Below are positions 2,221 to 50,071 of a stretch of 64,000 nt of DNA, piece by piece (positions within the stretch are counted from its first letter, which is position 1; every line of letters begins with the position of its first letter). The DNA is from Botryllus schlosseri (taxonomy: Eukaryota). A program made the translations under genes and the position numbers. The DNA lies in contig CM119372.1 in NCBI GenBank assembly GCA_051294905.1, positions 26,972,001-27,036,000 of the forward strand, written 5' to 3'. The notes under the pieces are model-generated. The model searched no databases. It saw only the letters and a list, made by a program, of their open reading frames with translations, and was not told the origin of the DNA.

Positions 2221-2227
2221 CAACTAT

Positions 2228-10052: not shown

Positions 10053-10416
10053 ACTAACACTGGTGTGATGGCGAGGAGGAGTCTCGGGCTGTCATAAAAC
10101 CGGAATTTCCCGGACATGTCCGGAATTTCACTGTACAAACTTGCTTCCGGAAGGAATTTTTAAAATATGCCCAAATGTCCGGAATTTTGAAGGCTTGACG
10201 TAGGCTAATAATTTTTTTCGTAAATCAACATATTAACATTATTTTTAACAATATTTATGGTACATGATATTTTTCGTCGGGCCGCGCGCGATTTACTATC
10301 TCATTTATTGATTTTAATATGGGGCTATCACCCTCTCAAATGCAATAAAATATAAACAAAAATAACAGTCATTTGCTGAAATAAGCCTAATTGTAATCGC
10401 AATTATAGGAGAACGG

Positions 10417-11015: not shown

Positions 11016-11849
11016 GAGAACGGTGTATTGCTAGAGATGGTTAATGCTGTTTGAATGCTTTATTCAAAGATAGCGGTTCCAAACGTGGGGGTTGTTTGCC
11101 TTCATTCTGGGGTTCGCGAATATGTTGAACGTAATCAGCTTCCAAAATAGCCCGCGGGTAGGTCTGGGCAAAGGTCCTGACTTCATTTAGTAATCAGCTC
11201 ATTAAATTTTGATCTGGGCCACGGAATATTTTCAAATGGGAGATGGAGTCGCAGCCATAAAAGGTCGGAAACCACTGTATGTGAGGTGTTCATAAAGTTC
11301 CGTGGTGCCCACCGGCATAAGGCTGATAAACAATCTTATCGGTGTGACATGGACATGACTTAACGATATACAATTGTACGCTCCCTGTATTTTCGAAGTC
11401 ATTAGCATCCACCAGCTCTACCGCTGACTCTGATCATGTGGGAGGAGAGAGGATCAAACTATATAGTAATATGGAAGAACCAATATTATTGACAGAGTTC
11501 ATTCAAAATATAGAACGACAAGATGCATATAGAATCCAGATGCATATATAGCACGCTTCTCCGGAAGTTGCATCGATTATACCTTATGGTGGGCCCAAAA
11601 TTATTGTTTATTAGGGCGGGAAAGGTCTGAAAAAATGTGGTTTCACAACAGACAGTCACATACTCCTGAACCGGATCGTGACAATCTCTGATCTATAAGC
11701 AAAGCTTTAATAGTGTGACATCATATTGACGGACAATGTGCTCATAGCTCATTTTGAAATCCACTAGTCGGCGCTAAAGAGTGTCCGTAATTGGGGTCAG
11801 AGAAATATGGTAACCCTACTAGATAAATCTCAAACACTTAAGTATGAAT

Positions 11850-11920
11850 TCTGGAGTCGACCTGGGTCGGACTCGAACCCGCAACCCATTGGTCTTGCAG
11901 CTGTGGATTATACCACTACC
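11850..11920 (-). mobile_element. tRNA-related head of the SINE family
   Basis: Minus strand GTAGTGGTATAATCCACAGCTGCAAGACCAATGGGTTGCGGGTTCGAGTCCGACC, with a perfect B box GGTTCGAGTCC; matches the 1950-2220 head. Confidence 0.7.
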
Positions 11921-14147
11921 GGCACTACGTTATCGTGCCACAATTTTCGTTGGTAATATACCATAACACCGATGAACAGTAAGAAAAGCAGATTTAGCTT
12001 GATGCAACTGTTACCTGTAGACAAGATTGCCTATGCGACGTGTAACATCATTCACAGCACATCGTAGAATATGTCCATAGTCCAGGCTCAATTTGACAAT
12101 CTTGGCCATTTAATGACCGTAAGCCCTTCCCCGCACTAACACGCCGAAGTAGTGATATCAATTCTTATTTTCTGCATGTCTTGAATGAAAATGCCGTTTC
12201 AACAGGGTAGGCTCCGTGGTCGCGCCAAAAACCGTTTTCATACAAATTACACACAATATAAAATTTATCGTCCGTGCTGTACTGATGCAATATTATACTA
12301 ACCAGGTATTAGGAAACTATTGTCTTCCTTGCGACACTGATGCATTACAATGTCAGCCAGGGGTGGGCAATTATTTTTCTCCGCGGGCCAAATGAAAAGC
12401 AGCAGAAAGTGTTGGTGGTCCGAGTCAAAAAAATTTAACTGTATTCTCCAGCGTATTAATTCTATTTCTAAATTGAAAGCAGTGAATTACGCCGTTAAGA
12501 AATGCTGCTCGGGGTGTGTAAATATAAGGAAATGTGAAACTGGCGGTTATTTACCAAAAAATAATAGGCCTATTTATTTGCCGTCATATCTCGAAACAAT
12601 GTTTAACATGATATATTTTGAACTCTCTTTAAACCCCTATCCGCGTTTTTCTATCAAGACAATAAAATTTATTTGGGCAGCTACAAAGCTTATTGTCTTC
12701 GACGCTGCCTTCCGAGCAGTGTGCAATTTGGTGAAATAGCCTTGTTGTTGAGACAAGCTTGCAGTTCTTTTCTGAGATTCGCCCTCCCTTGACCAAGTGT
12801 AGCCTATATCTTCTTGTTTTTGTAAGACCGACTTAAGTTATACTCTTCAAACCCGGCGACCTGCACGCCACTAACTACTAAAACAGGGGTTCTAAACCTG
12901 GGGGGCGCGGGAAGCTCTCAGAGGGGGCGCGAGAAATTAACCACGTCTGTATGAATTCTGACTAAAAATGTGCATCACAATCATTCTGAGAAGACGATTG
13001 TTAAAGATGTAACTGATTTCGTATTCAAGAAATCTCGGAATAAATTCTAACTCCAGCATTCGCGCTCAACGGAGTATAGGCTGATTTCAACTTCATTTGA
13101 GCAAATTTTTGATATTCTTTGAAAATTTGGAGCAATTCTCACGTGTAAGTCATTCATTACTTCATAGCTTTGCAGTATCCTAAAGTTCAAGTTCGGATGC
13201 GCTGGGTAGCAGTTGTTATTAATTGGCGAACTGCACTGCCTAAGACAGATTTAGATGCAATATAGGTTACCCGGTTTCGCCCTCAATTAAGCTACCCTAA
13301 ATAAACACAATTTATTCAATTCCAAAACCGATCGAATTTAGCATGTCAGTACAGAACGATGCCGTGCTCTCTGTAGTCACTACCAGCATTAGGATTTCTC
13401 AGTGCAACCTACCTTAAAATAATTTAATGTCCTGTTCAATGTTTCTTTGCTATTTTCAAACAAGTTTGGGGAAATTTGTCAGAAATGTTAAAGACTCAAC
13501 AACTGGAATGCGGATTCAAACTTTGCGTAAGACATACCATATGTATATTATTAGATCAGGGAAGGGCAACCTGTTGCTGTAGATGGGAATTTGTGCGGCC
13601 GTCTACACCCAATTCAATTAGCATGTGTAGACATTCGTCGACATGCAAATTGAAATGACGAATTCACTCCAAAATTTTTGAGAGATTTTAATTAATTTTG
13701 AAATTTTCTTCACACTCCGCGATATTCAACATAACCTAATTTTTCGATTTTAATATAGTAGCGCCCTTCTCACTGTTAGCCGGAATCGGAATCGTGCGTT
13801 CCGCACGAAAGAAATTTGTTTATGGTACATTTGGGCGATTTTAATATATTTCCACTACCGATACAATCGACTATCCTGATCGGGGGTCACAAAATAACAG
13901 CATGCAACCAAGTGACTAATAACATTTGGCCCACCCGAAAATGCATTATCATTTATAACTTGCCCTAAATTTTCAAAAGCTCTCTCTCTCAATGAACCCT
14001 ACCGGTGTATCTGATCACATGGGCTAAGAGAGGATAAATATTTGATAATAATATGTGATACTGCTACTATTAATTACTAATATTAGGATCTTGGTTGTTT
14101 TCACACCCTATTTACCGTCCACTTGCAACGTAATAATTTTATTTATT

Positions 14148-14184
14148 ACACGAGCTTTCGGAGCTCCGCTCCTTCTTCAGGTGT
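14148..14184 (-). ncRNA. Minimal type I hammerhead ribozyme motif (PLE pLTR)
   Basis: Reverse complement of ACAC CTGAAGA A GGAGC GGA GCTCC GAAA GCTC GTGT. Confidence 0.85.
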
Positions 14185-14403
14185 TGAAATGAAAATAACG
14201 CAAAGCGATTCTGGATTCAAACATATACGCGTATTGTGACATCACAGAGAAGATAACTTTCAGGCCTAAAAAGTTTGTACCTTTGTGACGTCATAAACAA
14301 TATAATCGAGATTGTAATTTGAAAGGACTACAGCAAGTTATGGCACTGAAAATGAGGTTTGAAAGCGTATATACAATGATTAAATACATATGCACCGAAT
14401 TTC

Positions 14404-17163
14404 TCAACTGCAGATTCGCATGGTGTAATGTGACATGCACCCCCGATCTATATTAAGCCCTTGATGGAACGTATTGAATTGGTCGATGTATTTCTGTTCA
14501 GTGGCCTTGCGCAGGGTTGAGTCCTCGATGTTCCCGGCCAACACGTTAACAATCATATCATTTTCCGAGTGTCCCGCAGAAGAAAAGTGCTCACCGACAG
14601 GCTTCGATCTGTTTCGTTTAGAAATGTCATGTCGATGACTATTTATTCTTCTGTGGAGTGGTTGGCCAGTTTCGCCAATGTACCACGCAGCATCACATCC
14701 CTTTTTGCAACGAATTAAATATATCACATTATCAGATTTGCATGTGTACTGGCCTTTGGTCCTGTGATTAGTTTGTCCTCTAGTAATCACGGTGCTGGTG
14801 TCGAGAATTGGACACGTTTTACACGAAGTTTGTCCGCAATTTTCAACAACGTTTTTTTGTATTGTATGAGGTAATCTGCTTTGTACCAAAATGCTTCGCA
14901 AGTTTCGAGGTTGTCGGATGGCTAGAAGTGGCCTCCTTGGGAATGCCTCTTTACATTTTGGATCATTTTCCAAAATACGTTGGTGTTTCCGTAGCATCTT
15001 ACGAATCTTTTCCGCCCCGGGAAAATATGTGGTAACCATCGGCACTCTGTGTTCTTTTTTTCCATCACTACTACTGCTGCCAAGGAGTTCTTCTCGTGGA
15101 ACGTTGATAGCCTTGTTAATTTGGATCTTTGTCAGATTTTGATCATATCCAGAATTTATTAGTTCATCTCTTAGAACTTGCAGATGATAATCCCTGTCGT
15201 CTTTCTTTGAGCAAATACGATGTATACGAAGAGCCTTGCTGTATATTATGCCCTTTTTACAGTGCATCGGATGAAAGCTGTGATAGTTCAATATTTTACC
15301 GGAGTCCGTTGGTTTACGATAAAGTGATGTGGTAATAGAACTCTCTTCGATATTGACTAGCGTATCGAGGAATGGGACGGCGTTCGTCGAGTGTTCCATA
15401 GTTAGTCGGATATTTGGATGAAAGCCGTTTATGGACTCGTGAAACTGTTTTAGTGATTCTTCTCCGTGGGTCCATATCATAAATATATCATCGATATATC
15501 TGGTGTAGAATATAGGTCGCAATTTCTGGGTTTCCATAAAATCTTTTTCAAAATGATGCATGAAAATATTTGCATATTGTGGAGCAAATTTCGTGCCCAT
15601 TGCCGTACCTTGAAGTTGTAAAAAAATGTCGTTATTAAATTCGAAGGTATTATGCGTCAACGTGAATCTGATGAGCTCCATGATGCTTTCTTTCATTGGG
15701 TGACTACTTTCCTCCAAGGATCTTTCCACAGCTTTCATACCATCACTATGTGGAATGCTCGTGTACAGTGACGAAACGTCCATGGTAGCTAATATAGTGC
15801 CTGGTTTCAATTTCTTGAAATGCTTGAGTTTGTTCAAGAAATCTGTTGTGTCCCGGCAAAAACTGGGTGTGCTTTTCACCAATGGTTTGAGATGTGTTTC
15901 CACGTATCCAGATATTTTTTCTGTTAGCGTGTTGTTGCACGAGACAATGGGGCGTCCAGGAATGTTCGCCTTGTGTAGTTTCGGAAGCAGATAAAAGCGG
16001 GCGAGGCAAGGATCAGCAGGCTTATTGATTTTCGATTTCTCTTCTTCACACATGTCTAAAGATTTGATAATGTCCCTCAATTCCTTTGTGTGTTGTTTTG
16101 TTGGGTCATTTGCTAATTTTTTGTACGAATCGGTGTCGTTCAGCTGCCTGTAACCTTCTTCTAGGTAGTCTTTCAAATCCATAACGACTACTTTTCCTCC
16201 TTTATCTGCAGGCTTTACCACGATGTCATGGTCATGTTTTAGTTCCCTTATTGCTCTTCTCTGCTCATTTGTGAGATTTTCGTCGTGGTTTCTTTTCCAA
16301 TTGTCAGATTTGCTGATGAATGTTGCATTTAACTCATTGTGAAAACTTTCCAGATATTTATCCAAATTAGCGTTTTCGCCGTGTGGTGCCCTCCATTTTA
16401 TATTTTTCTTCGGTTTCTTGCTGAGTATTTGCTCATTTGTATTCTGGACATTTTGAGACCCATCGTTTTTCGAATTGGTATCGTAGAAATGAAATTCATT
16501 TCTCATTTTTCTGTCAAATTCGTCTGCGTCTCCGGCGAGCACGTACGGATCTAGTTTTTGTGCAGGACAGAATTTCAAATTCAGACTGAGCACTTCTATT
16601 TGAGATTGGCTCAGTGTTTTGCTAGACAGATTTGCGATAGCCAGATTTGATTCATTGCTTTCAGCTGTTGCACCAGGAGGCAGTGATATTTCAGATTGCT
16701 GTCTTTCCGTTAGTAATTGCGTAATTTTTTTCTCCTTCTGCATGATCATCTCTTTTACTTCCTTTGTCGAAATATTTCGAACTACTTCACGCAACTCTCG
16801 TTGTGATTCGGGATTGGCAACTAAATTTATGGTATACTCAATATCGTACCTGAGCTTTGCTCTGCTTCTGTAATGCACATCAGTCAGATGTGCCATCAAT
16901 TTCTTCGACATTCGTCGAGCCAAATTTTCGGAGTATGTTGTCCTGAAGGTGTTACGTAAAGGATTCTGAATTCGTAGACCCTTTGGGATCAGGTCGCGCT
17001 TTTTGCATTCGGACAGAAAAAAGATGTCCGCGTTTTTGCGAGCAATCTTCTTTGCGATTCTTTCCACTTTAACTCGGCATTTTCTGGTGTGATCCATAGT
17101 TGAATAATTCTTTGGGCCGATAGCAGACGATATAGATAATATTAGGATCTTGGTTGTTTTCAC
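14404..17163 (-). CDS. Penelope-like RT-GIY-YIG endonuclease polyprotein, copy 1 (intact)
   Basis: RT motifs KPADKG, FYLLPKLHK, GRPIVS, TMDVSSLYTSI, QLQGTAMG, RYIDDIF, PFLD; Cys linker CGQTSCKTC; endonuclease NVIYLIRC..C..YIGETG..L.RRI..HR. The track start is a GTG; the first ATG is at 17097 (897 aa). Confidence 0.96.
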   Translation of the reverse strand: MKTTKILILSISSAIGPKNYSTMDHTRKCRVKVERIAKKIARKNADIFFLSECKKRDLIPKGLRIQNPLRNTFRTTYSENLARRMSKKLMAHLTDVHYRSRAKLRYDIEYTINLVANPESQRELREVVRNISTKEVKEMIMQKEKKITQLLTERQQSEISLPPGATAESNESNLAIANLSSKTLSQSQIEVLSLNLKFCPAQKLDPYVLAGDADEFDRKMRNEFHFYDTNSKNDGSQNVQNTNEQILSKKPKKNIKWRAPHGENANLDKYLESFHNELNATFISKSDNWKRNHDENLTNEQRRAIRELKHDHDIVVKPADKGGKVVVMDLKDYLEEGYRQLNDTDSYKKLANDPTKQHTKELRDIIKSLDMCEEEKSKINKPADPCLARFYLLPKLHKANIPGRPIVSCNNTLTEKISGYVETHLKPLVKSTPSFCRDTTDFLNKLKHFKKLKPGTILATMDVSSLYTSIPHSDGMKAVERSLEESSHPMKESIMELIRFTLTHNTFEFNNDIFLQLQGTAMGTKFAPQYANIFMHHFEKDFMETQKLRPIFYTRYIDDIFMIWTHGEESLKQFHESINGFHPNIRLTMEHSTNAVPFLDTLVNIEESSITTSLYRKPTDSGKILNYHSFHPMHCKKGIIYSKALRIHRICSKKDDRDYHLQVLRDELINSGYDQNLTKIQINKAINVPREELLGSSSSDGKKEHRVPMVTTYFPGAEKIRKMLRKHQRILENDPKCKEAFPRRPLLAIRQPRNLRSILVQSRLPHTIQKNVVENCGQTSCKTCPILDTSTVITRGQTNHRTKGQYTCKSDNVIYLIRCKKGCDAAWYIGETGQPLHRRINSHRHDISKRNRSKPVGEHFSSAGHSENDMIVNVLAGNIEDSTLRKATEQKYIDQFNTFHQGLNIDRGCMSHYTMRICS

Positions 17164-17206
17164 ACCCTATTTACCGTCCACTTGCAACGTAATAATTTTA
17201 TTTATT

Positions 17207-17243
17207 ACACGAGCTTTCGGAGCTCCGCTCCTTCTTCAGGTGT
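17207..17243 (-). ncRNA. Minimal hammerhead ribozyme motif
   Basis: Same motif as 31335-31371, reverse complement. Confidence 0.85.
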
Positions 17244-17462
17244 TGAAATGAAAATAACGCAAAGCGATTCTGGATTCAAACATATACGCGTATTGTGACA
17301 TCACAGAGAAGATAACTTTCAGGCCTAAAAAGTTTGTACCTTTGTGACGTCATAAACAATATAATCGAGATTGTAATTTGAAAGGACTACAGCAAGTTAT
17401 GGCACTGAAAATGAGGTTTGAAAGCGTATATACAATGATTAAATACATATGCACCGAATTTC

Positions 17463-20400
17463 TCAACTGCAGATTCGCATGGTGTAATGTGACATGCACC
17501 CCCGATCTATATTAAGCCCTTGATGGAACGTATTGAATTGGTCGATGTATTTCTGTTCAGTGGCCTTGCGCAGGGTTGAGTCCTCGATGTTCCCGGCCAA
17601 CACGTTAACAATCATATCATTTTCCGAGTGTCCCGCAGAAGAAAAGTGCTCACCGACAGGCTTCGATCTGTTTCGTTTAGAAATGTCATGTCGATGACTA
17701 TTTATTCTTCTGTGGAGTGGTTGGCCAGTTTCGCCAATGTACCACGCAGCATCACATCCCTTTTTGCAACGAATTAAATATATCACATTATCAGATTTGC
17801 ATGTGTACTGGCCTTTGGTCCTGTGATTAGTTTGTCCTCTAGTAATCACGGTGCTGGTGTCGAGAATTGGACACGTCTTACACGAAGTTTGTCCGCAATT
17901 TTCAACAACGTTTTTTTGTATTGTATGAGGTAATCTGCTTTGTACCAAAATGCTTCGCAAGTTTCGAGGTTGTCGGATGGCTAGAAGTGGCCTCCTTGGG
18001 AATGCCTCTTTACATTTTGGATCATTTTCCAAAATACGTTGGTGTTTCCGTAGCATCTTACGAATCTTTTCCGCCCCGGGAAAATATGTGGTAACCATCG
18101 GCACTCTGTGTTCTTTTTTTCCATCACTACTACTGCTGCCAAGGAGTTCTTCTCGTGGAACGTTGATAGCCTTGTTAATTTGGATCTTTGTCAGATTTTG
18201 ATCATATCCAGAATTTATTAGTTCATCTCTTAGAACTTGCAGATGATAATCCCTGTCGTCTTTCTTTGAGCAAATACGATGTATACGAAGAGCCTTGCTG
18301 TATATTATGCCCTTTTTACAGTGCATCGGATGAAAGCTGTGATAGTTCAATATTTTACCGGAGTCCGTTGGTTTACGATAAAGTGATGTGGTGATAGAAC
18401 TCTCTTCGATATTGACTAGCGTATCGAGGAATGGGACGGCGTTCGTCGAGTGTTCCATAGTTAGTCGGATATTTGGATGAAAGCCGTTTATGGACTCGTG
18501 AAACTGTTTTAGTGATTCTTCTCCGTGGGTCCATATCATAAATATATCATCGATATATCTGGTGTAGAATATAGGTCGCAATTTCTGGGTTTCCATAAAA
18601 TCTTTTTCAAAATGATGCATGAAAATATTTGCATATTGTGGAGCAAATTTCGTGCCCATTGCCGTACCTTGAAGTTGTAAAAAAATGTCGTTATTAAATT
18701 CGAAGGTATTATGCGTCAACGTGAATCTGATGAGCTCCATGATGCTTTCTTTCATTGGGTGACTACTTTCCTCCAAGGATCTTTCCACAGCTTTCATACC
18801 ATCACTATGTGGAATGCTCGTGTATAGTGACGAAACGTCCATGGTAGCTAATATAGTGCCTGGTTTCAATTTCTTGAAATGCTTGAGTTTGTTCAAGAAA
18901 TCTGTTGTGTCCCGGCAAAAACTGGGTGTGCTTTTCACCAATGGTTTGAGATGTGTTTCCACGTATCCAGATATTTTTTCTGTTAGCGTGTTGTTGCACG
19001 AGACAATGGGGCGTCCAGGAATGTTCGCCTTTACTTCGTTTCCATGCTCGGCCGATGGGCCCATTTTCGAGAGACTCGGCCGACGAACGAGAGAATTTTG
19101 TTGCGCATTTACAGTGATGCACACCCACGTCGGCCGACTCGTCGGCCATCTAGTAAATCCTTCGGCTTAGCCCTTCGGCCATGCTTGCGCTGTGTCTTCG
19201 ATTAGCTAATTGGTATTCGCTACTTACAATACACTTTTCGTATCAAATTAACCATGGCTGCACTCCGGACGGATCTTGGACGCCTTGAGAAACCAAGAAT
19301 TATGATCGCAACGGAATTTAGTAGTACCGGTACTGCTACGAATTACCCGTAGGCTACCGAAATCTTCGCGATCTGATCACATACGCTGCTGCCACAATTC
19401 GAAGGTTTGCGTTCTATGGTGCATGGATACAATACAAACTATACCGCTTGACCACAAACTAGGTGAACTTATTCACATTCCCCTGGTAAGCAAATCATCG
19501 ACAGGACACTGGACGTTCATGTCTGAATCATGACGAAGAAACAGTAGTACCGGTAGACTACTGGAGAAGTTACTATTCTGTGCTCGAAATTATTGGACCA
19601 CGATATCCCATATCTATATCCCCCACATACTAAGATATGCCACCAATTTTCATCTTTTATCCATCTTATTTTATCTTCTGTTAGTTTTAAGCAATTGGTT
19701 CATCGTGACCATTTTACATGTTGGATGCATTTCGTGTTCAAGGTCAAAGCGTGTTGTTTGATTGAATGACCGCTACAAGTCTTTTCGGCTCATTCCTACC
19801 GAGTCATTTATCGCAATCTTCTGATTATTATGAAATTGTTACTGAGTAAGTAAGCCAAAAACGTCATCGCGATCGCTTCGCCCACCTAGTTCGGCCAAGT
19901 CACGGTTGGGTTACGTCTGCTCATGGAAACACGGCCGACATGTACAACGCATGCGTCATGGCCTTTCGGCCGACCGTCGGCCGAGCATGGAAACGAAGTA
20001 TATGGTGCATGGATACAATACAAACTATACCGCTTGACCACAAACTAGGTGAACTTATTCACATTCCCCTGGTAAGCAAATCATCGACAGGACACTGGAC
20101 GTTCATGTCTGAATCATGACGAAGAAACAGTAGTACCGGTAGACTACTGGAGAAGTTACTATTCTGTGCTCGAAATTATTGGACCACGATATCCCATATC
20201 TATATCCCCCACATACTAAGATATGCCACCAATTTTCATCTTTTATCCATCTTATTTTATCTTCTGTTAGTTTTAAGCAATTGGTTCATCGTGACCATTT
20301 TACATGTTGGATGCATTTCGTGTTCAAGGTCAAAGCGTGTTGTTTGATTGAATGACCGCTACAAGTCTTTTCGGCTCATTCCTACCGAGTCATTTATCGC

Positions 20401-21780
20401 AATCTTCTGATTATTATGAAATTGTTACTGAGTAAGTAAGCCAAAAACGTCATCGCGATCGCTGCGCCCACCTAGTTCGGCCAAGTCACGGTTGGGTTAC
20501 GTCTGCTCATGGAAACACGGCCGACATGTACAACGCATGCGTCATGGCCTTTCGGCCGACCGTCGGCCGAGCATGGAAACGAAGTAATAGTGTAGTTTCG
20601 GAAGCAGATAAAAGCGGGCGAGGCAAGGATCAGCAGGCTTATTGATTTTCGATTTCTCTTCTTCACACATGTCTAAAGATTTGATAATGTCCCTCAATTC
20701 CTTTGTGTGTTGTTTTGTTGGGTCATTTGCTAATTTTTTGTACGAATCGGTGTCGTTCAGCTGCCTGTAACCTTCTTCTAGGTAGTCTTTCAAATCCATA
20801 ACGACTACTTTTCCTCCTTTATCTGCAGGCTTTACCACGATGTCATGGTCATGTTTTAGTTCCCTTATTGCTCTTCTCTGCTCATTTGTGAGATTTTCGT
20901 CGTGGTTTCTTTTCCAATTGTCAGATTTGCTGATGAATGTTGCATTTAACTCATTGTGAAAACTTTCCAGATATTTATCCAAATTAGCGTTTTCGCCGTG
21001 TGGTGCCCTCCATTTTATATTTTTCTTCGGTTTCTTGCTGAGTATTTGCTCATTTGTATTCTGGACATTTTGAGACCCATCGTTTTTCGAATTGGTATCG
21101 TAGAAATGAAATTCATTTCTCATTTTTCTGTCAAATTCGTCTGCGTCTCCGGCGAGCACGTACGGATCTAGTTTTTGTGCAGGACAGAATTTCAAATTCA
21201 GACTGAGCACTTCTATTTGAGATTGGCTCAGTGTTTTGCTAGACAGATTTGCGATAGCCAGATTTGATTCATTGCTTTCAGCTGTTGCACCAGGAGGCAG
21301 TGATATTTCAGATTGCTGTCTTTCCGTTAGTAATTGCGTAATTTTTTTCTCCTTCTGCATGATCATCTCTTTTACTTCCTTTGTCGAAATATTTCGAACT
21401 ACTTCACGCAACTCTCGTTGTGATTCGGGATTGGCAACTAAATTTATGGTATACTCAATATCGTACCTGAGCTTTGCTCTGCTTCTGTAATGCACATCAG
21501 TCAGATGTGCCATCAATTTCTTCGACATTCGTCGAGCCAAATTTTCGGAGTATGTTGTCCTGAAGGTGTTACGTAAAGGATTCTGAATTCGTAGACCCTT
21601 TGGGATCAGGTCGCGCTTTTTGCATTCGGACAGAAAAAAGATGTCCGCGTTTTTGCGAGCAATCTTCTTTGCGATTCTTTCCACTTTAACTCGGCATTTT
21701 CTGGTGTGATCCATAGTTGAATAATTCTTTGGGCCGATAGCAGACGATATAGATAATATTAGGATCTTGGTTGTTTTCAC
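17463..21780 (-). pseudogene. Penelope-like ORF copy 2, interrupted by a 1558-bp insertion
   Basis: N-terminal part 20590-21780 (to ...LLPKLH) and C-terminal part 17463-19031 (KANIPGRP...) rejoin exactly when 19032-20589 is removed. Confidence 0.95.
19032..20586. mobile_element. 969-bp MITE (PIF/Harbinger-like TIR) plus tandem duplication of its right 586 bp
   Basis: TIR TACTTCGTTTCCATGCTCGGCCGA / TCGGCCGAGCATGGAAACGAAGTA. The right TIR occurs twice (ending 20000 and 20586); 19415-20000 is repeated at 20001-20586. TCGGCC subterminal repeats. The superfamily assignment is tentative. Confidence 0.88.
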
Positions 21781-21823
21781 ACCCTATTTACCGTCCACTT
21801 GCAACGTAATAATTTTATTTATT

Positions 21824-21860
21824 ACACGAGCTTTCGGAGCTCCGCTCCTTCTTCAGGTGT
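21824..21860 (-). ncRNA. Minimal hammerhead ribozyme motif
   Basis: Same motif as 31335-31371, reverse complement. Confidence 0.85.
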
Positions 21861-22079
21861 TGAAATGAAAATAACGCAAAGCGATTCTGGATTCAAACAT
21901 ATACGCGTATTGTGACATCACAGAGAAGATAACTTTCAGGCCTAAAAAGTTTGTACCTTTGTGACGTCATAAACAATATAATCGAGATTGTAATTTGAAA
22001 GGACTACAGCAAGTTATGGCACTGAAAATGAGGTTTGAAAGCGTATATACAATGATTAAATACATATGCACCGAATTTC

Positions 22080-24839: not shown

Positions 24840-24882
24840 ACCCTATTTACCGTCCACTTGCAACGTAATAATTTTATTTATT

Positions 24883-24919
24883 ACACGAGCTTTCGGAGCT
24901 CCGCTCCTTCTTCAGGTGT
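24883..24919 (-). ncRNA. Minimal hammerhead ribozyme motif
   Basis: Same motif as 31335-31371, reverse complement. Confidence 0.85.
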
Positions 24920-25138
24920 TGAAATGAAAATAACGCAAAGCGATTCTGGATTCAAACATATACGCGTATTGTGACATCACAGAGAAGATAACTTTCAGGC
25001 CTAAAAAGTTTGTACCTTTGTGACGTCATAAACAATATAATCGAGATTGTAATTTGAAAGGACTACAGCAAGTTATGGCACTGAAAATGAGGTTTGAAAG
25101 CGTATATACAATGATTAAATACATATGCACCGAATTTC

Positions 25139-27898: not shown

Positions 27899-27941
27899 AC
27901 CCTATTTACCGTCCACTTGCAACGTAATAATTTTATTTATT

Positions 27942-27978
27942 ACACGAGCTTTCGGAGCTCCGCTCCTTCTTCAGGTGT
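27942..27978 (-). ncRNA. Minimal hammerhead ribozyme motif
   Basis: Same motif as 31335-31371, reverse complement. Confidence 0.85.
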
Positions 27979-28197
27979 TGAAATGAAAATAACGCAAAGC
28001 GATTCTGGATTCAAACATATACGCGTATTGTGACATCACAGAGAAGATAACTTTCAGGCCTAAAAAGTTTGTACCTTTGTGACGTCATAAACAATATAAT
28101 CGAGATTGTAATTTGAAAGGACTACAGCAAGTTATGGCACTGAAAATGAGGTTTGAAAGCGTATATACAATGATTAAATACATATGCACCGAATTTC

Positions 28198-29402
28198 TCA
28201 ACTGCAGATTCGCATGGTGTAATGTGACATGCACCCCCGATCTATATTAAGCCCTTGATGGAATGTATTGAATTGGTCGATGTATTTCTGTTCAGTGGCC
28301 TTGCGCAGGGTTGAGTCCTCGATGTTCCCGGCCAACACGTTAACAATCATATCATTTTCCGAGTGTCCCGCAGAAGAAAAGTGCTCACCGACAGGCTTCG
28401 ATCTGTTTCGTTTAGAAATGTCATGTCGATGACTATTTATTCTTCTGTGGAGTGGTTGGCCAGTTTCGCCAATGTACCACGCAGCATCACATCCCTTTTT
28501 GCAACGAATTAAATATATCACATTATCAGATTTGCATGTGTACTGGCCTTTGGTCCTGTGATTAGTTTGTCCTCTAGTAATCACGGTGCTGGTGTCGAGA
28601 ATTGGACACGTCTTACACGAAGTTTGTCCGCAATTTTCAACAACGTTTTTTTGTATTGTATGAGGTAATCTGCTTTGTACCAAAATGCTTCGCAAGTTTC
28701 GAGGTTGTCGGATGGCTAGAAGTGGCCTCCTTGGGAATGCCTCTTTACATTTTGGATCATTTTCCAAAATACGTTGGTGTTTCCGTAGCATCTTACGAAT
28801 CTTTTCCGCCCCGGGAAAATATGTGGTAACCATCGGCACTCTGTGTTCTTTTTTTCCATCACTACTACTGCTGCCAAGGAGTTCTTCTCGTGGAACGTTG
28901 ATAGCCTTGTTAATTTGGATCTTTGTCAGATTTTGATCATATCCAGAATTTATTAGTTCATCTCTTAGAACTTGCAGATGATAATCCCCGTCGTCTTTCT
29001 TTGAGCAAATACGATGTATACGAAGAGCCTTGCTGTATATTATGCCCTTTTTACAGTGCATCGGATGAAAGCTGTGATAGTTCAATATTTTACCGGAGTC
29101 CGTTGGTTTACGATAAAGTGATGTGGTAATAGAACTCTCTTCGATATTGACTAGCGTATCGAGGAATGGGACGGCGTTCGTCGAGTGTTCCATAGTTAGT
29201 CGGATATTTGGATGAAAGCCGTTTATGGACTCGTGAAACTGTTTTAGTGATTCTTCTCCGTGGGTCCATATCATAAATATATCATCGATATATCTGGTGT
29301 AGAATATAGGTCGCAATTTCTGGGTTTCCATAAAATCTTTTTCAAAATGATGCATGAAAATATTTGCATATTGTGGAGCAAATTTCGTGCCCATTGCCGT
29401 AC
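28198..29402 (-). pseudogene. 5'-truncated Penelope-like ORF, copy 5 (from TAMGTKF onward)
   Basis: Matches the C-terminal ~400 codons; truncated at the inversion junction; one R>G change (KDDGDY). Confidence 0.93.
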
Positions 29403-29403
29403 G

Positions 29404-31115
29404 TAGCAAATGACCCAACAAAACAACACACAAAGGAATTGAGGGACATTATCAAATCTTTAGACATGTGTGAAGAAGAGAAATCGAAAATCAATAAGCC
29501 TGCTGATCCTTGCCTCGCCCGCTTTTATCTGCTTCCGAAACTACACAAGGCGAACATTCCTGGACGCCCCATTGTCTCGTGCAACAACACGCTAACAGAA
29601 AAAATATCTGGATACGTGGAAACACATCTCAAACCATTGGTGAAAAGCACACCCAGTTTTTGCCGGGACACAACAGATTTCTTGAACAAACTCAAGCATT
29701 TCAAGAAATTGAAACCAGGCACTATATTAGCTACCATGGACGTTTCGTCACTATACACGAGCATTCCACATAGTGATGGTATGAAAGCTGTGGAAAGATC
29801 CTTGGAGGAAAGTAGTCACCCAATGAAAGAAAGCATCATGGAGCTCATCAGATTCACGTTGACGCATAATACCTTCGAATTTAATAACGACATTTTTTTA
29901 CAACTTCAAGGTACGGCAATGGGCACGAAATTTGCTCCACAATATGCAAATATTTTCATGCATCATTTTGAAAAAGATTTTATGGAAACCCAGAAATTGC
30001 GACCTATATTCTACACCAGATATATCGATGATATATTTATGATATGGACCCACGGAGAAGAATCACTAAAACAGTTTCACGAGTCCATAAACGGCTTTCA
30101 TCCAAATATCCGACTAACTATGGAACACTCGACGAACGCCGTCCCATTCCTCGATACGCTAGTCAATATCGAAGAGAGTTCTATTACCACATCACTTTAT
30201 CGTAAACCAACGGACTCCGGTAAAATATTGAACTATCACAGCTTTCATCCGATGCACTGTAAAAAGGGCATAATATACAGCAAGGCTCTTCGTATACATC
30301 GTATTTGCTCAAAGAAAGACGACAGGGATTATCATCTGCAAGTTCTAAGAGATGAACTAATAAATTCTGGATATGATCAAAATCTGACAAAGATCCAAAT
30401 TAACAAGGCTATCAACGTTCCACGAGAAGAACTCCTTGGCAGCAGTAGTAGTGATGGAAAAAAAGAACACAGAGTGCCGATGGTTACCACATATTTTCCC
30501 GGGGCGGAAAAGATTCGTAAGATGCTACGGAAACACCAACGTATTTTGGAAAATGATCCAAAATGTAAAGAGGCATTCCCAAGGAGGCCACTTCTAGCCA
30601 TCCGACAACCTCGAAACTTGCGAAGCATTTTGGTACAAAGCAGATTACCTCATACAATACAAAAAAACGTTGTTGAAAATTGCGGACAAACTTCGTGTAA
30701 GACGTGTCCAATTCTCGACACCAGCACCGTGATTACTAGAGGACAAACTAATCACAGGACCAAAGGCCAGTACACATGCAAATCTGATAATGTGATATAT
30801 TTAATTCGTTGCAAAAAGGGATGTGATGCTGCGTGGTACATTGGCGAAACTGGCCAACCACTCCACAGAAGAATAAATAGTCATCGACATGACATTTCTA
30901 AACGAAACAGATCGAAGCCTGTCGGTGAGCACTTTTCTTCTGCGGGACACTCGGAAAATGATATGATTGTTAACGTGTTGGCCGGGAACATCGAGGACTC
31001 AACCCTGCGCAAGGCCACTGAACAGAAATACATCGACCAATTCAATACGTTCCATCAAGGGCTTAATATAGATCGGGGGTGCATGTCACATTACACCATG
31101 CGAATCTGCAGTTGA
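29404..31115 (+). pseudogene. 5'-truncated Penelope-like ORF, copy 6 (from ANDPTK onward)
   Basis: Matches the C-terminal ~570 codons in the opposite orientation; starts at the inversion junction. Confidence 0.93.
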
Positions 31116-31334
31116 GAAATTCGGTGCATATGTATTTAATCATTGTATATACGCTTTCAAACCTCATTTTCAGTGCCATAACTTGCTGTAGTCCTTTCAA
31201 ATTACAATCTCGATTATATTGTTTATGACGTCACAAAGGTACAAACTTTTTAGGCCTGAAAGTTATCTTCTCTGTGATGTCACAATACGCGTATATGTTT
31301 GAATCCAGAATCGCTTTGCGTTATTTTCATTTCA

Positions 31335-31371
31335 ACACCTGAAGAAGGAGCGGAGCTCCGAAAGCTCGTGT
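31335..31371 (+). ncRNA. Minimal type I hammerhead ribozyme motif
   Basis: Stem I ACAC/GUGU; core CUGAAGA; stem II GGAGC-GGA-GCUCC; GAAA; palindromic AGCU in place of stem III; predicted cleavage after CUC at 31367. Confidence 0.87.
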
Positions 31372-31414
31372 AATAAATAAAATTATTACGTTGCAAGTGG
31401 ACGGTAAATAGGGT

Positions 31415-34174
31415 GTGAAAACAACCAAGATCCTAATATTATCTATATCGTCTGCTATCGGCCCAAAGAATTATTCAACTATGGATCACACCAGAAAATG
31501 CCGAGTTAAAGTGGAAAGAATCGCAAAGAAGATTGCTCGCAAAAACGCGGACATCTTTTTTCTGTCCGAATGCAAAAAGCGCGACCTGATCCCAAAGGGT
31601 CTACGAATTCAGAATCCTTTACGTAACACCTTCAGGACAACATACTCCGAAAATTTGGCTCGACGAATGTCGAAGAAATTGATGGCACATCTGACTGATG
31701 TGCATTACAGAAGCAGAGCAAAGCTCAGGTACGATATTGAGTATACCATAAATTTAGTTGCCAATCCCGAATCACAACGAGAGTTGCGTGAAGTAGTTCG
31801 AAATATTTCGACAAAGGAAGTAAAAGAGATGATCATGCAGAAGGAGAAAAAAATTACGCAATTACTAACGGAAAGACAGCAATCTGAAATATCACTGCCT
31901 CCTGGTGCAACAGCTGAAAGCAATGAATCAAATCTGGCTATCGCAAATCTGTCTAGCAAAACACTGAGCCAATCTCAAATAGAAGTGCTCAGTCTGAATT
32001 TGAAATTCTGTCCTGCACAAAAACTAGATCCGTACGTGCTCGCCGGAGACGCAGACGAATTTGACAGAAAAATGAGAAATGAATTTCATTTCTACGATAC
32101 CAATTCGAAAAACGATGGGTCTCAAAATGTCCAGAATACAAATGAGCAAATACTCAGCAAGAAACCGAAGAAAAATATAAAATGGAGGGCACCACACGGC
32201 GAAAACGCTAATTTGGATAAATATCTGGAAAGTTTTCACAATGAGTTAAATGCAACATTCATCAGCAAATCTGACAATTGGAAAAGAAACCACGACGAAA
32301 ATCTCACAAATGAGCAGAGAAGAGCAATAAGGGAACTAAAACATGACCATGACATCGTGGTAAAGCCTGCAGATAAAGGAGGAAAAGTAGTCGTTATGGA
32401 TTTGAAAGACTACCTAGAAGAAGGTTACAGGCAGCTGAACGACACCGATTCGTACAAAAAATTAGCAAATGACCCAACAAAACAACACACAAAGGAATTG
32501 AGGGACATTATCAAATCTTTAGACATGTGTGAAGAAGAGAAATCGAAAATCAATAAGCCTGCTGATCCTTGCCTCGCCCGCTTTTATCTGCTTCCGAAAC
32601 TACACAAGGCGAACATTCCTGGACGCCCCATTGTCTCGTGCAACAACACGCTAACAGAAAAAATATCTGGATACGTGGAAACACATCTCAAACCATTGGT
32701 GAAAAGCACACCCAGTTTTTGCCGGGACACAACAGATTTCTTGAACAAACTCAAGCATTTCAAGAAATTGAAACCAGGCACTATATTAGCTACCATGGAC
32801 GTTTCGTCACTATACACGAGCATTCCACATAGTGATGGTATGAAAGCTGTGGAAAGATCCTTGGAGGAAAGTAGTCACCCAATGAAAGAAAGCATCATGG
32901 AGCTCATCAGATTCACGTTGACGCATAATACCTTCGAATTTAATAACGACATTTTTTTACAACTTCAAGGTACGGCAATGGGCACGAAATTTGCTCCACA
33001 ATATGCAAATATTTTCATGCATCATTTTGAAAAAGATTTTATGGAAACCCAGAAATTGCGACCTATATTCTACACCAGATATATCGATGATATATTTATG
33101 ATATGGACCCACGGAGAAGAATCACTAAAACAGTTTCACGAGTCCATAAACGGCTTTCATCCAAATATCCGACTAACTATGGAACACTCGACGAACGCCG
33201 TCCCATTCCTCGATACGCTAGTCAATATCGAAGAGAGTTCTATTACCACATCACTTTATCGTAAACCAACGGACTCCGGTAAAATATTGAACTATCACAG
33301 CTTTCATCCGATGCACTGTAAAAAGGGCATAATATACAGCAAGGCTCTTCGTATACATCGTATTTGCTCAAAGAAAGACGACAGGGATTATCATCTGCAA
33401 GTTCTAAGAGATGAACTAATAAATTCTGGATATGATCAAAATCTGACAAAGATCCAAATTAACAAGGCTATCAACGTTCCACGAGAAGAACTCCTTGGCA
33501 GCAGTAGTAGTGATGGAAAAAAAGAACACAGAGTGCCGATGGTTACCACATATTTTCCCGGGGCGGAAAAGATTCGTAAGATGCTACGGAAACACCAACG
33601 TATTTTGGAAAATGATCCAAAATGTAAAGAGGCATTCCCAAGGAGGCCACTTCTAGCCATCCGACAACCTCGAAACTTGCGAAGCATTTTGGTACAAAGC
33701 AGATTACCTCATACAATACAAAAAAACGTTGTTGAAAATTGCGGACAAACTTCGTGTAAGACGTGTCCAATTCTCGACACCAGCACCGTGATTACTAGAG
33801 GACAAACTAATCACAGGACCAAAGGCCAGTACACATGCAAATCTGATAATGTGATATATTTAATTCGTTGCAAAAAGGGATGTGATGCTGCGTGGTACAT
33901 TGGCGAAACTGGCCAACCACTCCACAGAAGAATAAATAGTCATCGACATGACATTTCTAAACGAAACAGATCGAAGCCTGTCGGTGAGCACTTTTCTTCT
34001 GCGGGACACTCGGAAAATGATATGATTGTTAACGTGTTGGCCGGGAACATCGAGGACTCAACCCTGCGCAAGGCCACTGAACAGAAATACATCGACCAAT
34101 TCAATACGTTCCATCAAGGGCTTAATATAGATCGGGGGTGCATGTCACATTACACCATGCGAATCTGCAGTTGA
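31415..34174 (+). CDS. Penelope-like RT-GIY-YIG polyprotein, copy 7 (intact)
   Basis: Translation matches copy 1; first ATG at 31481. Confidence 0.96.
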   Translation: MKTTKILILSISSAIGPKNYSTMDHTRKCRVKVERIAKKIARKNADIFFLSECKKRDLIPKGLRIQNPLRNTFRTTYSENLARRMSKKLMAHLTDVHYRSRAKLRYDIEYTINLVANPESQRELREVVRNISTKEVKEMIMQKEKKITQLLTERQQSEISLPPGATAESNESNLAIANLSSKTLSQSQIEVLSLNLKFCPAQKLDPYVLAGDADEFDRKMRNEFHFYDTNSKNDGSQNVQNTNEQILSKKPKKNIKWRAPHGENANLDKYLESFHNELNATFISKSDNWKRNHDENLTNEQRRAIRELKHDHDIVVKPADKGGKVVVMDLKDYLEEGYRQLNDTDSYKKLANDPTKQHTKELRDIIKSLDMCEEEKSKINKPADPCLARFYLLPKLHKANIPGRPIVSCNNTLTEKISGYVETHLKPLVKSTPSFCRDTTDFLNKLKHFKKLKPGTILATMDVSSLYTSIPHSDGMKAVERSLEESSHPMKESIMELIRFTLTHNTFEFNNDIFLQLQGTAMGTKFAPQYANIFMHHFEKDFMETQKLRPIFYTRYIDDIFMIWTHGEESLKQFHESINGFHPNIRLTMEHSTNAVPFLDTLVNIEESSITTSLYRKPTDSGKILNYHSFHPMHCKKGIIYSKALRIHRICSKKDDRDYHLQVLRDELINSGYDQNLTKIQINKAINVPREELLGSSSSDGKKEHRVPMVTTYFPGAEKIRKMLRKHQRILENDPKCKEAFPRRPLLAIRQPRNLRSILVQSRLPHTIQKNVVENCGQTSCKTCPILDTSTVITRGQTNHRTKGQYTCKSDNVIYLIRCKKGCDAAWYIGETGQPLHRRINSHRHDISKRNRSKPVGEHFSSAGHSENDMIVNVLAGNIEDSTLRKATEQKYIDQFNTFHQGLNIDRGCMSHYTMRICS

Positions 34175-34393
34175 GAAATTCGGTGCATATGTATTTAATC
34201 ATTGTATATACGCTTTCAAACCTCATTTTCAGTGCCATAACTTGCTGTAGTCCTTTCAAATTACAATCTCGATTATATTGTTTATGACGTCACAAAGGTA
34301 CAAACTTTTTAGGCCTGAAAGTTATCTTCTCTGTGATGTCACAATACGCGTATATGTTTGAATCCAGAATCGCTTTGCGTTATTTTCATTTCA

Positions 34394-34430
34394 ACACCTG
34401 AAGAAGGAGCGGAGCTCCGAAAGCTCGTGT
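34394..34430 (+). ncRNA. Minimal hammerhead ribozyme motif (terminal pLTR)
   Basis: Identical to 31335-31371, 3059 bp downstream. Confidence 0.85.
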
Positions 34431-37172
34431 AATAAATAAAATTATTACGTTGCAAGTGGACGGTAAATAGGGTGTGAAAACAACCAAGATCCTAATATTA
34501 TCTATATCGTCTGCTATCGGCCCAAAGAATTATTCAACTATTAATTACGGAATTCATTCGTGAATCTGAAAATTTTTCGCGCTCGGCGCGACAATATGCA
34601 ATCCCAGCAACTATTCATAACATTGCAACTCGCGATTTCGGTACGTACAAAAAAGGCTTTTGTTAAAAGTATAATCGTCCGGACTCCGTAGTTCACCGGC
34701 AATGGATATGGACAGTTTAACATAGGTCTTTCGCGTCCAGTTAGTTCATTAATGCTATGCCCTGGAATGCGGCCTCAGGCTACATAAGTAATCGAAATGG
34801 GCCGTGATTAGCAAAAAGGGTGCCTACCTCTGTACTAGATGATATTCTCTTTTCGACATGACGAAAAGGGCAGGGGGGCAGGGGGCGCAATATTTTCGAT
34901 CATCCCCAAGGGGGGCGCATGTCCAAAAAGGTTGAGAACCGCTGTACTAAAAGGACGGATTTACCCTTGACTTGACATATTTAGTGCTCCACAGCTTCTT
35001 TAAATTTCAGCTTCCGGCTTTCATGTTTTTGGACATGCCCGTTCATCCATGGGTGATGATGATGCATAATATTCACGGGCACTGATTGACTTGTTTTACA
35101 AATTAGGAATTTGGAATTTGGAAACGTATCCCGTAACAATTCTAAGCACATAACGTGTATTGTGCAACGTGGCAATGGCAACAAAGGTTTGGTGACTTTT
35201 GTGACTTTAGTGTTACGGCATAATTTGCTACATTGACTTATTTTGAATCTTGATTACGCATGTGGAGACGTAGGCTGCGTAATCGCGGTATATTTATGAA
35301 CATGCTTGAAAATATACGAATTTTCGCTTCAGTTTATACAGCCTATGCTTTCGGTCCACGCAGCAACATTATTAAAATGTATAGGTTTTATGTTTTGAAT
35401 TCCAAACAACGTTTCGCGGCCCTCAGAAGAGCTCCGCGGGCCCTACGCTTTATGCCGCTACTGATCGTACACATTGGGTGTCCGTTTAGTGGGTGTATAG
35501 CCTGGACGCGCCAAGCGCGAATTTTTTTAAATTTATGATTGAATCCGTCAGTAGGATAGGGAATTGCATATATATGCAATCAATTTTTATCCTCGCTCTG
35601 CCCACGTAATCAGATTTACCGGTAGAGCTGATCGAGCGAGGTGTGTTGGAAAAGCAAAGACCCCTAAATAATAATCAAACATCTTTGGGCGTACCCGTTG
35701 GTATAATGAATTCGGTACATGATGCTATTTCGTGTCCTCCTATCTACTGTGTCAAAAGATATTGAAATCGCCCACACGTACTAAACTAAAACGTACACGA
35801 TTTCAAATTGTTATTTCTTCTTTGAAAAAGTTGCATAAATTTCGAAAAAAATACTACATGATTTATGTTTATTCACGAAATAATTTTGGTTCCCCTTCGA
35901 GCTCGGTCCCCCCAATTGGGGGATTTGGGGTGCGACAATGACGGTCCTGTGCCTAACACCAGACGTGCGTGTATCCATTCGAGTCACATGATTCATTGAT
36001 AGAAGCAAAGTACATCATTTACATTTAGTTTTATTGCATGACTCCAGATATTCACAATATGAGTGAAGAAGGGGAACTACGCTCCAAACATGATGTGGTC
36101 CCGACTTGAAGTTAAGCCATTGAGGGCATTTTTTCAGAAAGCCACCACGTTTGAGCTTCAGCTGAAATATTTTCGAGATATGCACCATAACACACGTGCG
36201 ACCCTGTGGCGTCGCAAAGGTTAAGAAGCATTCACGCGCAATGGCGATAAACCTCGACATCTTGGATATCGAGCGTGTGCTATGGTGCACATTTTGAGGG
36301 TGTATTGGCTTCAGTTCGACTGCGGTGGCTTTCTGAAGAAATTGAATGCTATTCCTTTCCATATTTTGCTTCCAGACATATTTTGCAGAGCAGACCTTTC
36401 TCGCTCGAAAAAAAAATCTGACCTAATTTTACAGTTTTTTCTTCCGTTTTCACATGCTCCGACAACCATTCCATGTTAAACGAATCGCACTTCTTGTTAA
36501 TTTGGCTTGATGAGGGGATGAGAGACTACCCATTCGTATTGCCATTATCAAAAGCGGTCAGTATATACATAGTGCAGAATTAGCCACTCCGGCAAGCAGA
36601 TATAGCCAAAACACTAGTAGCGACACAAATGGACGCCTGTAACCGCAAGTACTATAGACCAGTCGTTCTCAACCTTTTTCACCTCGCAGACAGGTAAAAT
36701 TTCAATAAATAATTGGCGGACCGGTGGACCTTCAAAAATTGAAATCAACCCAAAATGTAAAGTATTAATATTATTAATATTCTTTATTCACAGTAAAACT
36801 GGTTAATACACACATAATCTGGGGAGCAACCTGCCCCCAAAGGAAAATGGCGGGATTGGAGTAAATTTTTGATAATTTCAGTAATACAGTCAAATTGTTA
36901 TTCCTATGCAATAAATGGAGAAGTCAAATTACAGAATTGCATTAGATCAGTGGTTCCCAACCTGTGGTACGCGTACCACTAGTGGTACGCGAAGGTCTTC
37001 CAGGTGGTAGGTAAGTAGATTCTGTTTTTTTTTTCGACCGAAGGACGTTATTGGTGCAGGTGGGGTTGATTTTGATTTTTTTGAAGCCGTCGTCGTCGTG
37101 GTAAGGTACGTCGAAGAAACAAAACCGACTTGTTGCGACCATGCATGACTTTCGATGGGCTGTGAGCTAGTG

Positions 37173-50035: not shown

Positions 50036-50071
50036 CAAAATAAACTATTCTCCTGATCCCAACATCACAAT

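Follow-up and report, generated by a model that had tools for sequence, protein, structure and literature searches.

How does a transposable element come to lie in seven near-identical copies, head-to-head over ~20 kb, at one chromosomal site? The question is raised by a locus of Botryllus schlosseri (assembly GCA_051294905.1, contig CM119372.1, positions 26,972,001 to 27,036,000; this 64,000-nt stretch is called the window, and positions given without a unit or locus name are those of the window). The locus carries Penelope-like elements (PLEs) in an array that amounts to 18,905 nt of element sequence, or 6.2 unit-equivalents, in two arms of opposite orientation. An earlier note, made from the letters of the window, had proposed that the array was installed by a single two-sided insertion. 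One site, one 12-bp duplication and outward-facing 3' ends were indeed found, and it is very probable that one target site was filled from both sides. That all units were made in the same event is unproven, and we consider the chances of this to be about even.

A single target-site duplication and a paralogous empty site

The exact 12-mer ACTATTAATTAC is present on the forward strand at 14066-14077 and at 34537-34548, and has no other exact copy in the 64-kb window; a near-copy with one mismatch is located at 7435. Identity over 12 nt at two given ends is expected by chance with a probability of ~9e-8, or ~9e-6 when 10 x 10 offsets are allowed. The earlier note had both copies abutting the 3' ends of the element. 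This is true of the left copy, whereas the right copy overlaps the element by its first 5 nt (ACTAT), which correspond to unit positions 3057-3059 followed by the AT of the next ATG and represent microhomology with the template.

The DNA that received the insertion is a ~1.59-kb dispersed repeat of high copy number (12884-14077 plus 34549-34944). Its left part (12884-14065, plus strand) is delimited by homology to three paralogues, which begins at 12884-12899 and extends to 14077, and its right part (34549-34944, plus strand) by paralogues matching right-flank positions 1-408/413. A first-look search of the 495.5-Mb assembly returned 4,806 candidates for the left flank and 4,295 for the right. 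Forty candidates were scored per flank, and those of the left flank are 89-95% identical. Copies of the host repeat (thousands of candidates, with loci including L001-L012 and L036-L038) are 86-95% identical overall.

In the paralogous copies, the left- and right-flank matches overlap by exactly 12 nt. The empty site predicted by the earlier note, ...CTGCT-ACTATTAATTAC-GGAATTC..., was found once in 12/12 paralogues fetched, with the 12-mer letter-perfect in 7/12; it should be noted that this is paralogy and not an allele. The single copy in all 12 paralogues shows that 14078-34536 was inserted relative to the host repeat, and that 12 bp were duplicated upon insertion. The recognition that the flanks belong to a high-copy repeat, and thereby provide a paralogous empty site, is new in this analysis.

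Anatomy of the head-to-head array

The unit period within the array is exactly 3,059 bp, as determined by self-BLAST and column-by-column comparison, and the units are pairwise 99.8-100% identical, with no indels between them. The left arm (14078-29402, minus strand) is 15,325 nt long and, after subtraction of a 1,558-nt insert, contains 13,767 nt of element sequence, i.e. 4.5 tandem units separated by four internal junctions (17093-17136, 21710-21753, 24769-24812 and 27828-27871). Its 5' end at 29402 corresponds to unit position 1490, and its 3' end at 14078 to unit position 3020, a tail-less start site referred to here as short. The right arm (29404-34541, plus strand) comprises 5,138 nt (strictly 5,133-5,138 nt, given the 5-nt overlap), or 1.68 units, with one internal junction (31442-31485); it begins at unit position 983 and ends at unit 3056-3061, the tailed, long start site. 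The right-arm end is located 36-41 nt further along the unit than the left-arm end. The resulting tail of 36-41 nt (34501-34541, plus strand; unit 3021-3061) is present at the right end only, and 39 nt of it are identical to the linker between units within arrays. The arm lengths of 13767 and 5138 nt reported earlier hold in self-BLAST, and so does the 5' truncation of both arms at their meeting point.

Each unit consists of an open reading frame (ORF; unit 1-2694), a 3' untranslated region (2695-3020) and a 39-nt linker (3021-3059) preceding the next ATG. At least four intact ORFs had been announced, and exactly four were found, each of 897 amino acids (aa): three in the left arm on the minus strand (14404-17097 in the 3'-most unit, 22080-24773 and 25139-27832) and one in the right arm on the plus strand (31481-34174, with RVT_1 at residues 382-565 and GIY-YIG at residues ~790-880). 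One more ORF on the minus strand (17463-21714) is split by the insert into pieces at 17463-19064 and 20542-21714, and two are 5'-truncated, including that of the innermost left unit (28198-29402, minus strand).

The head-to-head (5'-5') junction at 29400-29405 reads …GCCGTAC-G-TAGCAAATG…, within which TACGTA forms a 6-nt palindrome and the orphan G at 29403 matches neither arm. No microhomology was found at this junction, where the predicted continuation of each arm differs from the observed sequence, and the arms are offset by 507 nt (unit 1490 versus 983).

This geometry bears on a rival explanation, by which the array had only one arm at first and part of it was subsequently copied, in inverted orientation, as DNA, through fold-back or replication template switching. 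The right arm is the reverse complement of internal left-arm sequence, as such copying would produce, and a true fold-back form exists in the family, with symmetric arms (L022). The arms in the window, however, are 507 nt out of register, and the right arm ends precisely at the tailed site of the family, beside the duplication, and shows 5 nt of microhomology with the primer. Such an end points to priming on RNA and not to a random replication switch, and inverted copying at the DNA level is scarcely credible here. Hairpin self-priming of the inverted arm was likewise rejected for the window, as its arms are out of register by these 507 nt.

In the small symmetric locus L022 (G000:C14:24224000-24231000, at 996-1738), unit 2662 is the end point of either arm, and the arms overlap by 9 nt.

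The unit as an endonuclease-bearing Penelope-like element

The Penelope identity of the units, already assumed in the earlier note, was supported by the domains and catalytic residues of the encoded protein. The ORF contains a reverse transcriptase (RT) domain (RVT_1, E 2.4e-13) and, at its C-terminus, a GIY-YIG nuclease recognised in the last 157 aa (PF01541, E 6.1e-7, with a score of 30.1 bits where the curated cut-off is 22.6). Residue conservation was scored in an alignment with 24 homologues of 32-47% identity. Invariant positions are (i) A297-D298-K299-G300 (DKG) and D536-D537 (YIDD) of the RT, (ii) Y793, Y806, G808, R817, H821 and H837 of the nuclease, in which E867 and N882 are near-invariant, and (iii) C754, C759 and C762 of a cluster ahead of the nuclease (zinc-finger cysteines). 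Homologues at 32-51% identity bear PF00078, PF28514 and PF26215, and the best of them come from sharks, a turtle, amphioxus, echinoderms, bivalves and corals and are unnamed.

The following features of canonical endonuclease-bearing (EN+) PLEs (Penelope/Poseidon, Neptune, Nematis type) are present: a single RT ORF, a Cys-rich linker with GIY-YIG, partial-tandem pseudo-long terminal repeats (pLTRs), 5' truncation, an inverted 5'-truncated copy, a single short duplication at an AT-rich site and a 30-40-nt tail at one end. Judged by its sequence, the unit is almost certainly a canonical element of this kind.

A minimal hammerhead-like motif was identified at 34394-34430 (plus strand; unit 2914-2950), with a predicted cut at 34426/34427 (unit 2946/2947). 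It reads ACAC-CUGAAGA-A-GGAGC-GGA-GCUCC-GAA-AGCU-C/GUGU (the slash marking the predicted cut), with a 5-bp helix II, a 4-bp helix I, no stem-III loop, and an extra A between A9 and helix II. The motif occurs in all 7 units (e.g. 14148-14184, minus strand) and is kept in most of the 17 arms of a ~75%-identical sister family, where it has CUGAUGA and a different loop II. The exceptions are L032p (CUGAUAA with a degenerate helix II) and L033m (one helix-II mismatch). Position 7 and loop II thus vary between the families within hammerhead rules. No Rfam family reached the gathering score in the window, none matched at E up to 10 in 31000-34700, and no match was found in the sister-family locus L024 either. 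The putative hammerhead fits the minimal, dimer-type hammerheads of PLEs described in PMC7761336.

Start-site pairing in the family and its sister family

For comparison, a set of 15 two-armed loci was compiled from the PLE family and the sister family (the window, L018, L019 and L021-L032). The earlier note had suggested a survey for further tail-out arrays within one target-site duplication, and such loci do exist: a single 8-14-nt duplication surrounds the whole insert in 12/15 of the set, the exceptions being L023, L029 and L032. In 13/15, a short end (3014-3026) is paired with a tailed end (3045-3061). The end pairs of L029 and of L032, which has a 46-nt arm ending at 2960, are unreadable, and neither short+short nor long+long pairs occur among the 13 readable two-armed loci. 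The readable one-armed loci (n = 7) have five short and two long ends, and 13 mixed pairs out of 13 would be obtained under independent end choice with P = 1.1e-4.

Centre junctions of the 15 loci show an overlap of 1-9 nt in seven cases, a gap of 1-7 nt in five (including the window) and a longer gap in three. The overlap between element and duplication at the outer ends amounts to 0-6 nt; in the window, it is 5 nt for the tailed end and 0 nt for the short one. These values, from 8 tailed and 10 short ends, are rough, as they were obtained with a crude script that breaks at variants in L018, L019, L022 and L030.

The paired ends also bear on the possibility that two independent PLE insertions occurred, with one arm inserted precisely where the other has its inner edge. 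The family favours AT-rich sites and PLEs can target PLE sequence, which would make such a coincidence easier. A second insertion should nevertheless have brought its own 8-14-nt duplication, as seen in 12/15 loci, and in the window no direct repeat other than the 12-mer flanks either arm alone, which argues against two separate insertions. Moreover, no host-repeat sequence is present between the arms, and the pairing of short and tailed ends in 13/15 loci, with no exception among the readable ones, indicates that the two ends are coupled. Two independent insertions are therefore highly improbable.

A further locus with tandem units, L013 (G000:C7:14280495-14286478, at 1001-4984), consists of unit segments 2461-3059, 1-3059 and 1-326. 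Its 3' end lies 326 nt into the next ORF, at neither of the usual start sites, and no duplication was detected by the script. It may represent a third start mode or a truncated locus.

Proposed course of the insertion

The anatomy of the array, its enclosure in one 12-bp duplication, the reading of the empty site, the pairing of start sites and the close identity of the units are observed; the order of events and the production of all 6.2 unit-equivalents at insertion are inferred. A young PLE would have inserted once into a copy of the ~1.6-kb dispersed repeat. Its GIY-YIG endonuclease would have made a staggered cut with 12-nt 3' overhangs, each of which would prime reverse transcription of the element RNA, so that the two resulting 3' ends face outward. 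Of the two cDNAs, one would begin at the short internal site (unit 3020), and the other 36-41 nt downstream of it, at the long site (3056-3061), which shares 5 nt of microhomology with the primer; the difference between the two start sites would account for the PLE tail being present at one end only. Both cDNAs would traverse several unit lengths and stop at unit 1490 and 983, respectively, after which their 3' ends would be joined with one untemplated base and each would template the second strand of the other. Production of all units at insertion would require that the RNA contained several units or that a template one unit long was used over and over. A variant in which both cDNAs are made on one RNA, the tailed one trailing, was rejected, as the tailed arm is the longer one in 4/13 loci.

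Priming by both overhangs with mid-way joining of the cDNAs is the current PLE model and not a new one. The biochemistry of PLE insertion rests on one in vitro study (PMC11167929, Frangieh et al. 2024), in which the purified protein of PAc (Poseidon of Anolis carolinensis) cut and extended both strands of an AT-rich target. Reverse transcription by PAc starts at two internal RNA sites, whose spacing equals the tail, and needs RNA downstream (PMC11167929). The start sites of PAc, 30-40 nt apart and defining the tail, and its tandem genomic organisation follow the same pattern as those found here (PMC11167929). The distance from the hammerhead cut is also similar, with start sites ~75-115 nt downstream of the predicted cut in our case and ~85-92 nt in PAc (PMC11167929). 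The two systems differ in that the PAc start sites are 111-118 nt inside the ORF, while those of the array are 2-40 nt upstream of the ATG, and in that no homology between primer and start site is reported for PAc, compared to the crude-script estimate of 0-6 nt overlap given above (PMC11167929).

Another close counterpart is Pen2a_Av of Adineta vaga, described in PMC3846280 (Arkhipova et al. 2013) as pLTR-ORF-pLTR plus an inverted pLTR, with one 9-bp duplication and a 31-bp one-sided tail. Tandem and inverted PLE copies with a one-sided tail and a single duplication were published in 2013 and 2021 (PMC3846280, PMC8557442), and another such PLE insert was proved by an allelic empty site (PMC3846280). 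The array resembles Pen2a_Av and the inserts of Fig. 2 of Craig et al. 2021 (PMC8557442) in its pLTRs, its head-to-head inverted 5'-truncated copy and its 30-40-nt tail at one end. The duplication, single in both cases, is 9 bp long in Pen2a_Av and 12 bp here. The differences from a typical Penelope concern (i) scale, with 4.5 + 1.7 units, 18.9 kb and 4 intact ORFs against one ORF with pLTRs, and (ii) the inverted part, with 1.7 units and an intact ORF against a solo pLTR; the empty site is represented by 12 paralogues here and by an allele in the published Penelope insert.

The array was also compared with two other systems that produce inverted or tandem copies. Its likeness to LINE-1 twin priming lies in the priming of cDNA by both 3' ends of the staggered break, the mid-way joining through microhomology or a few additional bases, the single duplication and the inversion. 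In twin priming, which Ostertag and Kazazian reportedly described in 2001, the second primer is said to anneal inside the same RNA. In a LINE-1 inversion only one arm lies at the 3' end of the element, whereas here both arms do, with whole tandem units. A LINE-1-type twin-priming inversion was ruled out, since both arms end at 3' start sites (3020 and 3056-3061).

Animal non-LTR retrozymes are tandem hammerhead repeats for which movement through circular RNA and PLE enzymes has been proposed (PMC7761336, bioRxiv 10.64898/2026.07.22.740005). They share with the array the head-to-tail identical units, a minimal type I hammerhead-like motif and the link to PLEs, but their units are non-coding and 150-450 bp long, compared to the 3,059-bp autonomous element found here. 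Identity with a non-LTR retrozyme was ruled out, as the 3,059-bp unit codes for an 897-aa RT-EN protein.

Number of units and assembly of the array

The earlier note had considered the scale to be well beyond the usual, and the genome-wide comparison agrees with it. A 44-nt pattern across the unit junction was searched for throughout the genome with up to 3 mismatches (<=3) and found at 13 places. Of these, the left arm of the array accounts for four internal junctions and its right arm for one, and a sixth match is the array's right end; three other loci together contribute four internal junctions (<=2 each), and the last three matches are arm ends. In the sister family, five junctions were found at five loci. 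The other loci contain 1.05-1.97 units per arm. In a limited search of the literature, no PLE insert with at least four units per arm within one duplication was found.

Near-identical 3-kb repeats may be miscounted or misarranged during assembly. Tandem and inverted PLE structures are known to trouble assemblies (PMC8557442, PMC3846280), and the private variants 15766 and 14818 (see below) were not present in contigs of three sequencing runs, though contigs drop rare variants. Against an artefact, the outer junctions are pinned by the duplication and by the 12/12 empty-site paralogues. The opposite arms require an inversion junction, and the centre is an imperfect palindrome, unlike the product of a hairpin-read artefact. 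Unique anchors (flank, inserted element or centre) are nowhere more than 8.8 kb apart. Furthermore, the locus has no second haplotype copy in the assembly, where the unique flanks 11890-12357 and 34950-35434 match only their own place.

Contig depth was examined over 10000-17090, in which high-copy repeat makes up most of the flank. Four flank contigs of run X1 that are identical to the window have word depths of 15.5-20.8 (mean 18.35); the value for a 157-nt contig of the same run that matches the element exactly (16573-16729) is 118.9, giving an element/flank ratio of 6.5. The 157-mer occurs exactly five times in the assembly, always within the array, and the ratio is not below these five assembled copies. 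Word depths are not copy numbers, and X1 is possibly the source sample of the assembly, so that its depth is not independent support; it only says that there is no sign of fewer copies than assembled. Altogether, an artefactual number or arrangement of units is very unlikely.

Variation among the units and the timing of their multiplication

Only five of the 18,905 positions vary among the units, and both arms have the same majority sequence. Each of the five substitutions is private to one unit: 15766 and 14818 to the 3'-most left unit, 18393 to the unit with the split ORF, and 28989 and 28264 to the innermost left unit. The remaining two left-arm units (with the ORFs at 22080-24773 and 25139-27832) and both right-arm units have the majority sequence. 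All five substitutions are transitions and derived relative to the young (>=95%-identical) copies compared, although A at unit 2628 recurs in the older L019. Four of them are synonymous third-position changes and the fifth is R635G; at least four third-position changes out of five has P = 0.045, a post-hoc value from a sample (n=5) too small to interpret. Neither the uneven spread of substitutions over the units (P = 0.077, by mutation-free length) nor the location of all five in the left arm (P = 0.20) is significant. This star-like pattern weakly fits units that would have been identical at birth.

A secondary insert of the left arm provides a sixth change. The earlier note had called it a miniature inverted-repeat transposable element. 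It is indeed foreign to the PLE, but the insert (19032-20589, plus strand) is composed of a 969-bp terminal inverted repeat (TIR) element (19032-20000; TIR TACTTCGTTTCCATGCTCGGCCGATGG), a 586-bp tandem duplicate of the right part of this element (20001-20586, plus strand) and ATA. As it is present in only one unit, the insert is younger than the array.

These data bear most directly on the chief alternative, namely that a smaller two-armed insertion (e.g. 1.5 + 1.7 units) came first and that its left arm then grew in place, by unequal sister-chromatid exchange, replication slippage, or self-targeting of the pLTR-ORF junction resolved by homology. Tandem units that are identical over 3 kb lend themselves well to unequal exchange, and two steps, from 1.5 to 2.5 and then to 4.5 units, would be enough. 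None of the other arms examined has more than two internal junctions, and the right arm of the array has the usual single one. Tandem formation followed by unequal crossover is also put forward for PLE-derived repeats in bioRxiv 10.64898/2026.07.22.740005. On the other side, no variant is common to a subset of the units and the TIR insert is confined to one of them, which means that any growth must be older than all six changes. The likelihood ratio is ~1.5-3 against growth, and about nine older arms of the family and the sister family did not grow. We regard growth in place as a serious possibility, though one that falls short of even chances.

Several observations weigh against the production of the whole array in a single two-sided insertion. 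The locus is an outlier, with five internal junctions compared to no more than two at any other locus of the family or sister family. No array that could have served as the source of a linear 4.5-unit transcript was found in the assembly, and this leaves room for growth in place; within the assembly, the 'GGCCC' linker subfamily has full-length copies in this array only. Either the source is lacking from the assembly, or the units were multiplied. Later growth would leave no shared variant with a probability of 0.38-0.69 per step, and concerted evolution could hide the age of the units. Among the matches listed (24 of ~26,000 pieces), no contig bridged 14077/14078 and none had a loose end at that point, and the single-copy unique flanks mean that no second allele is present in the assembly. 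Finally, PAc showed no strand difference in start site in vitro, whereas here each two-armed insert uses one of each (PMC11167929), and the strict pairing thus lacks a published mechanism.

Taking both sides into account, a single two-sided PLE insertion with multi-unit cDNAs is the best explanation of the locus as a whole, and we would give it roughly equal odds of being right or wrong. Within this explanation, the arms could have been spun out at insertion from a unit-length template used repeatedly, and not from a long transcript. Two routes can be envisaged: (i) a 3,059-nt RNA, processed by the hammerhead and circularised, could be reverse-transcribed in rolling-circle fashion, or (ii) homology could guide repeated template switching between terminally redundant RNAs. 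We consider repeated use of the template rather unlikely. If true, it would explain how the left arm, with four junctions, exceeds every possible source (<=2), why the units would be identical at birth, and the tandem units of PLE insertions generally. The strict tail pairing could be coupled to it, with a dimeric ribonucleoprotein giving one start site per DNA strand.

Other elements and repeats of the window

The family of the secondary TIR element is young: at least 40 copies were found (40 scored of 286 candidates), with 86-100% identity, most of them at 95-100%. No target duplication accompanies the element in the window. Among the TIR loci L040-L044, the copies L040 and L042 have on their right flank the letters ATAGTGT, as does the copy in the window. 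The insertion may have been aberrant and of a repair type, or the flank may have been transduced.

In run X12, whose label names another organism (D), the PLE is represented by a contig of 1,491 nt with only 5 differences from window 15613-17090; the depth on the unique flank 11896-12132 is 0.23, i.e. almost none. The near-identical PLE family seems to be common to several species labels.

The region 10000-11200 has an extremely high contig word depth and many short skips in all three contig runs, a pattern that suggests a repeat of great abundance and internal variability immediately to the left of the locus. Two repeat pairs are unrelated to the PLE: a direct pair at 18-217 and 47422-47603 (81.6% identity) and an inverted pair at 50068-50330 and 53960-54222 (95% identity).

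Significance of the locus

The architecture of the array is already known from other PLEs and only its size is unusual. The locus reveals no new kind of element, and confirms what PLEs are known to do, on a scale that is unusually large. It belongs to a young and probably active family, in which small two-armed insertions are numerous. The build-up of tandem and inverted PLE inserts is still called undefined by specialists (PMC8557442). In this respect the locus is a very clean natural product, combining an empty site, a 12-bp duplication, both start sites and a one-base 5'-5' joint. It offers a system for asking whether arrays are made at insertion or grow later, whether circular or multi-unit RNAs serve as templates, and how one of each start site comes to be used in every two-sided insertion. 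The most interesting residue is mechanistic, and consists of an array that exceeds any available source and of the strict one-of-each use of start sites.

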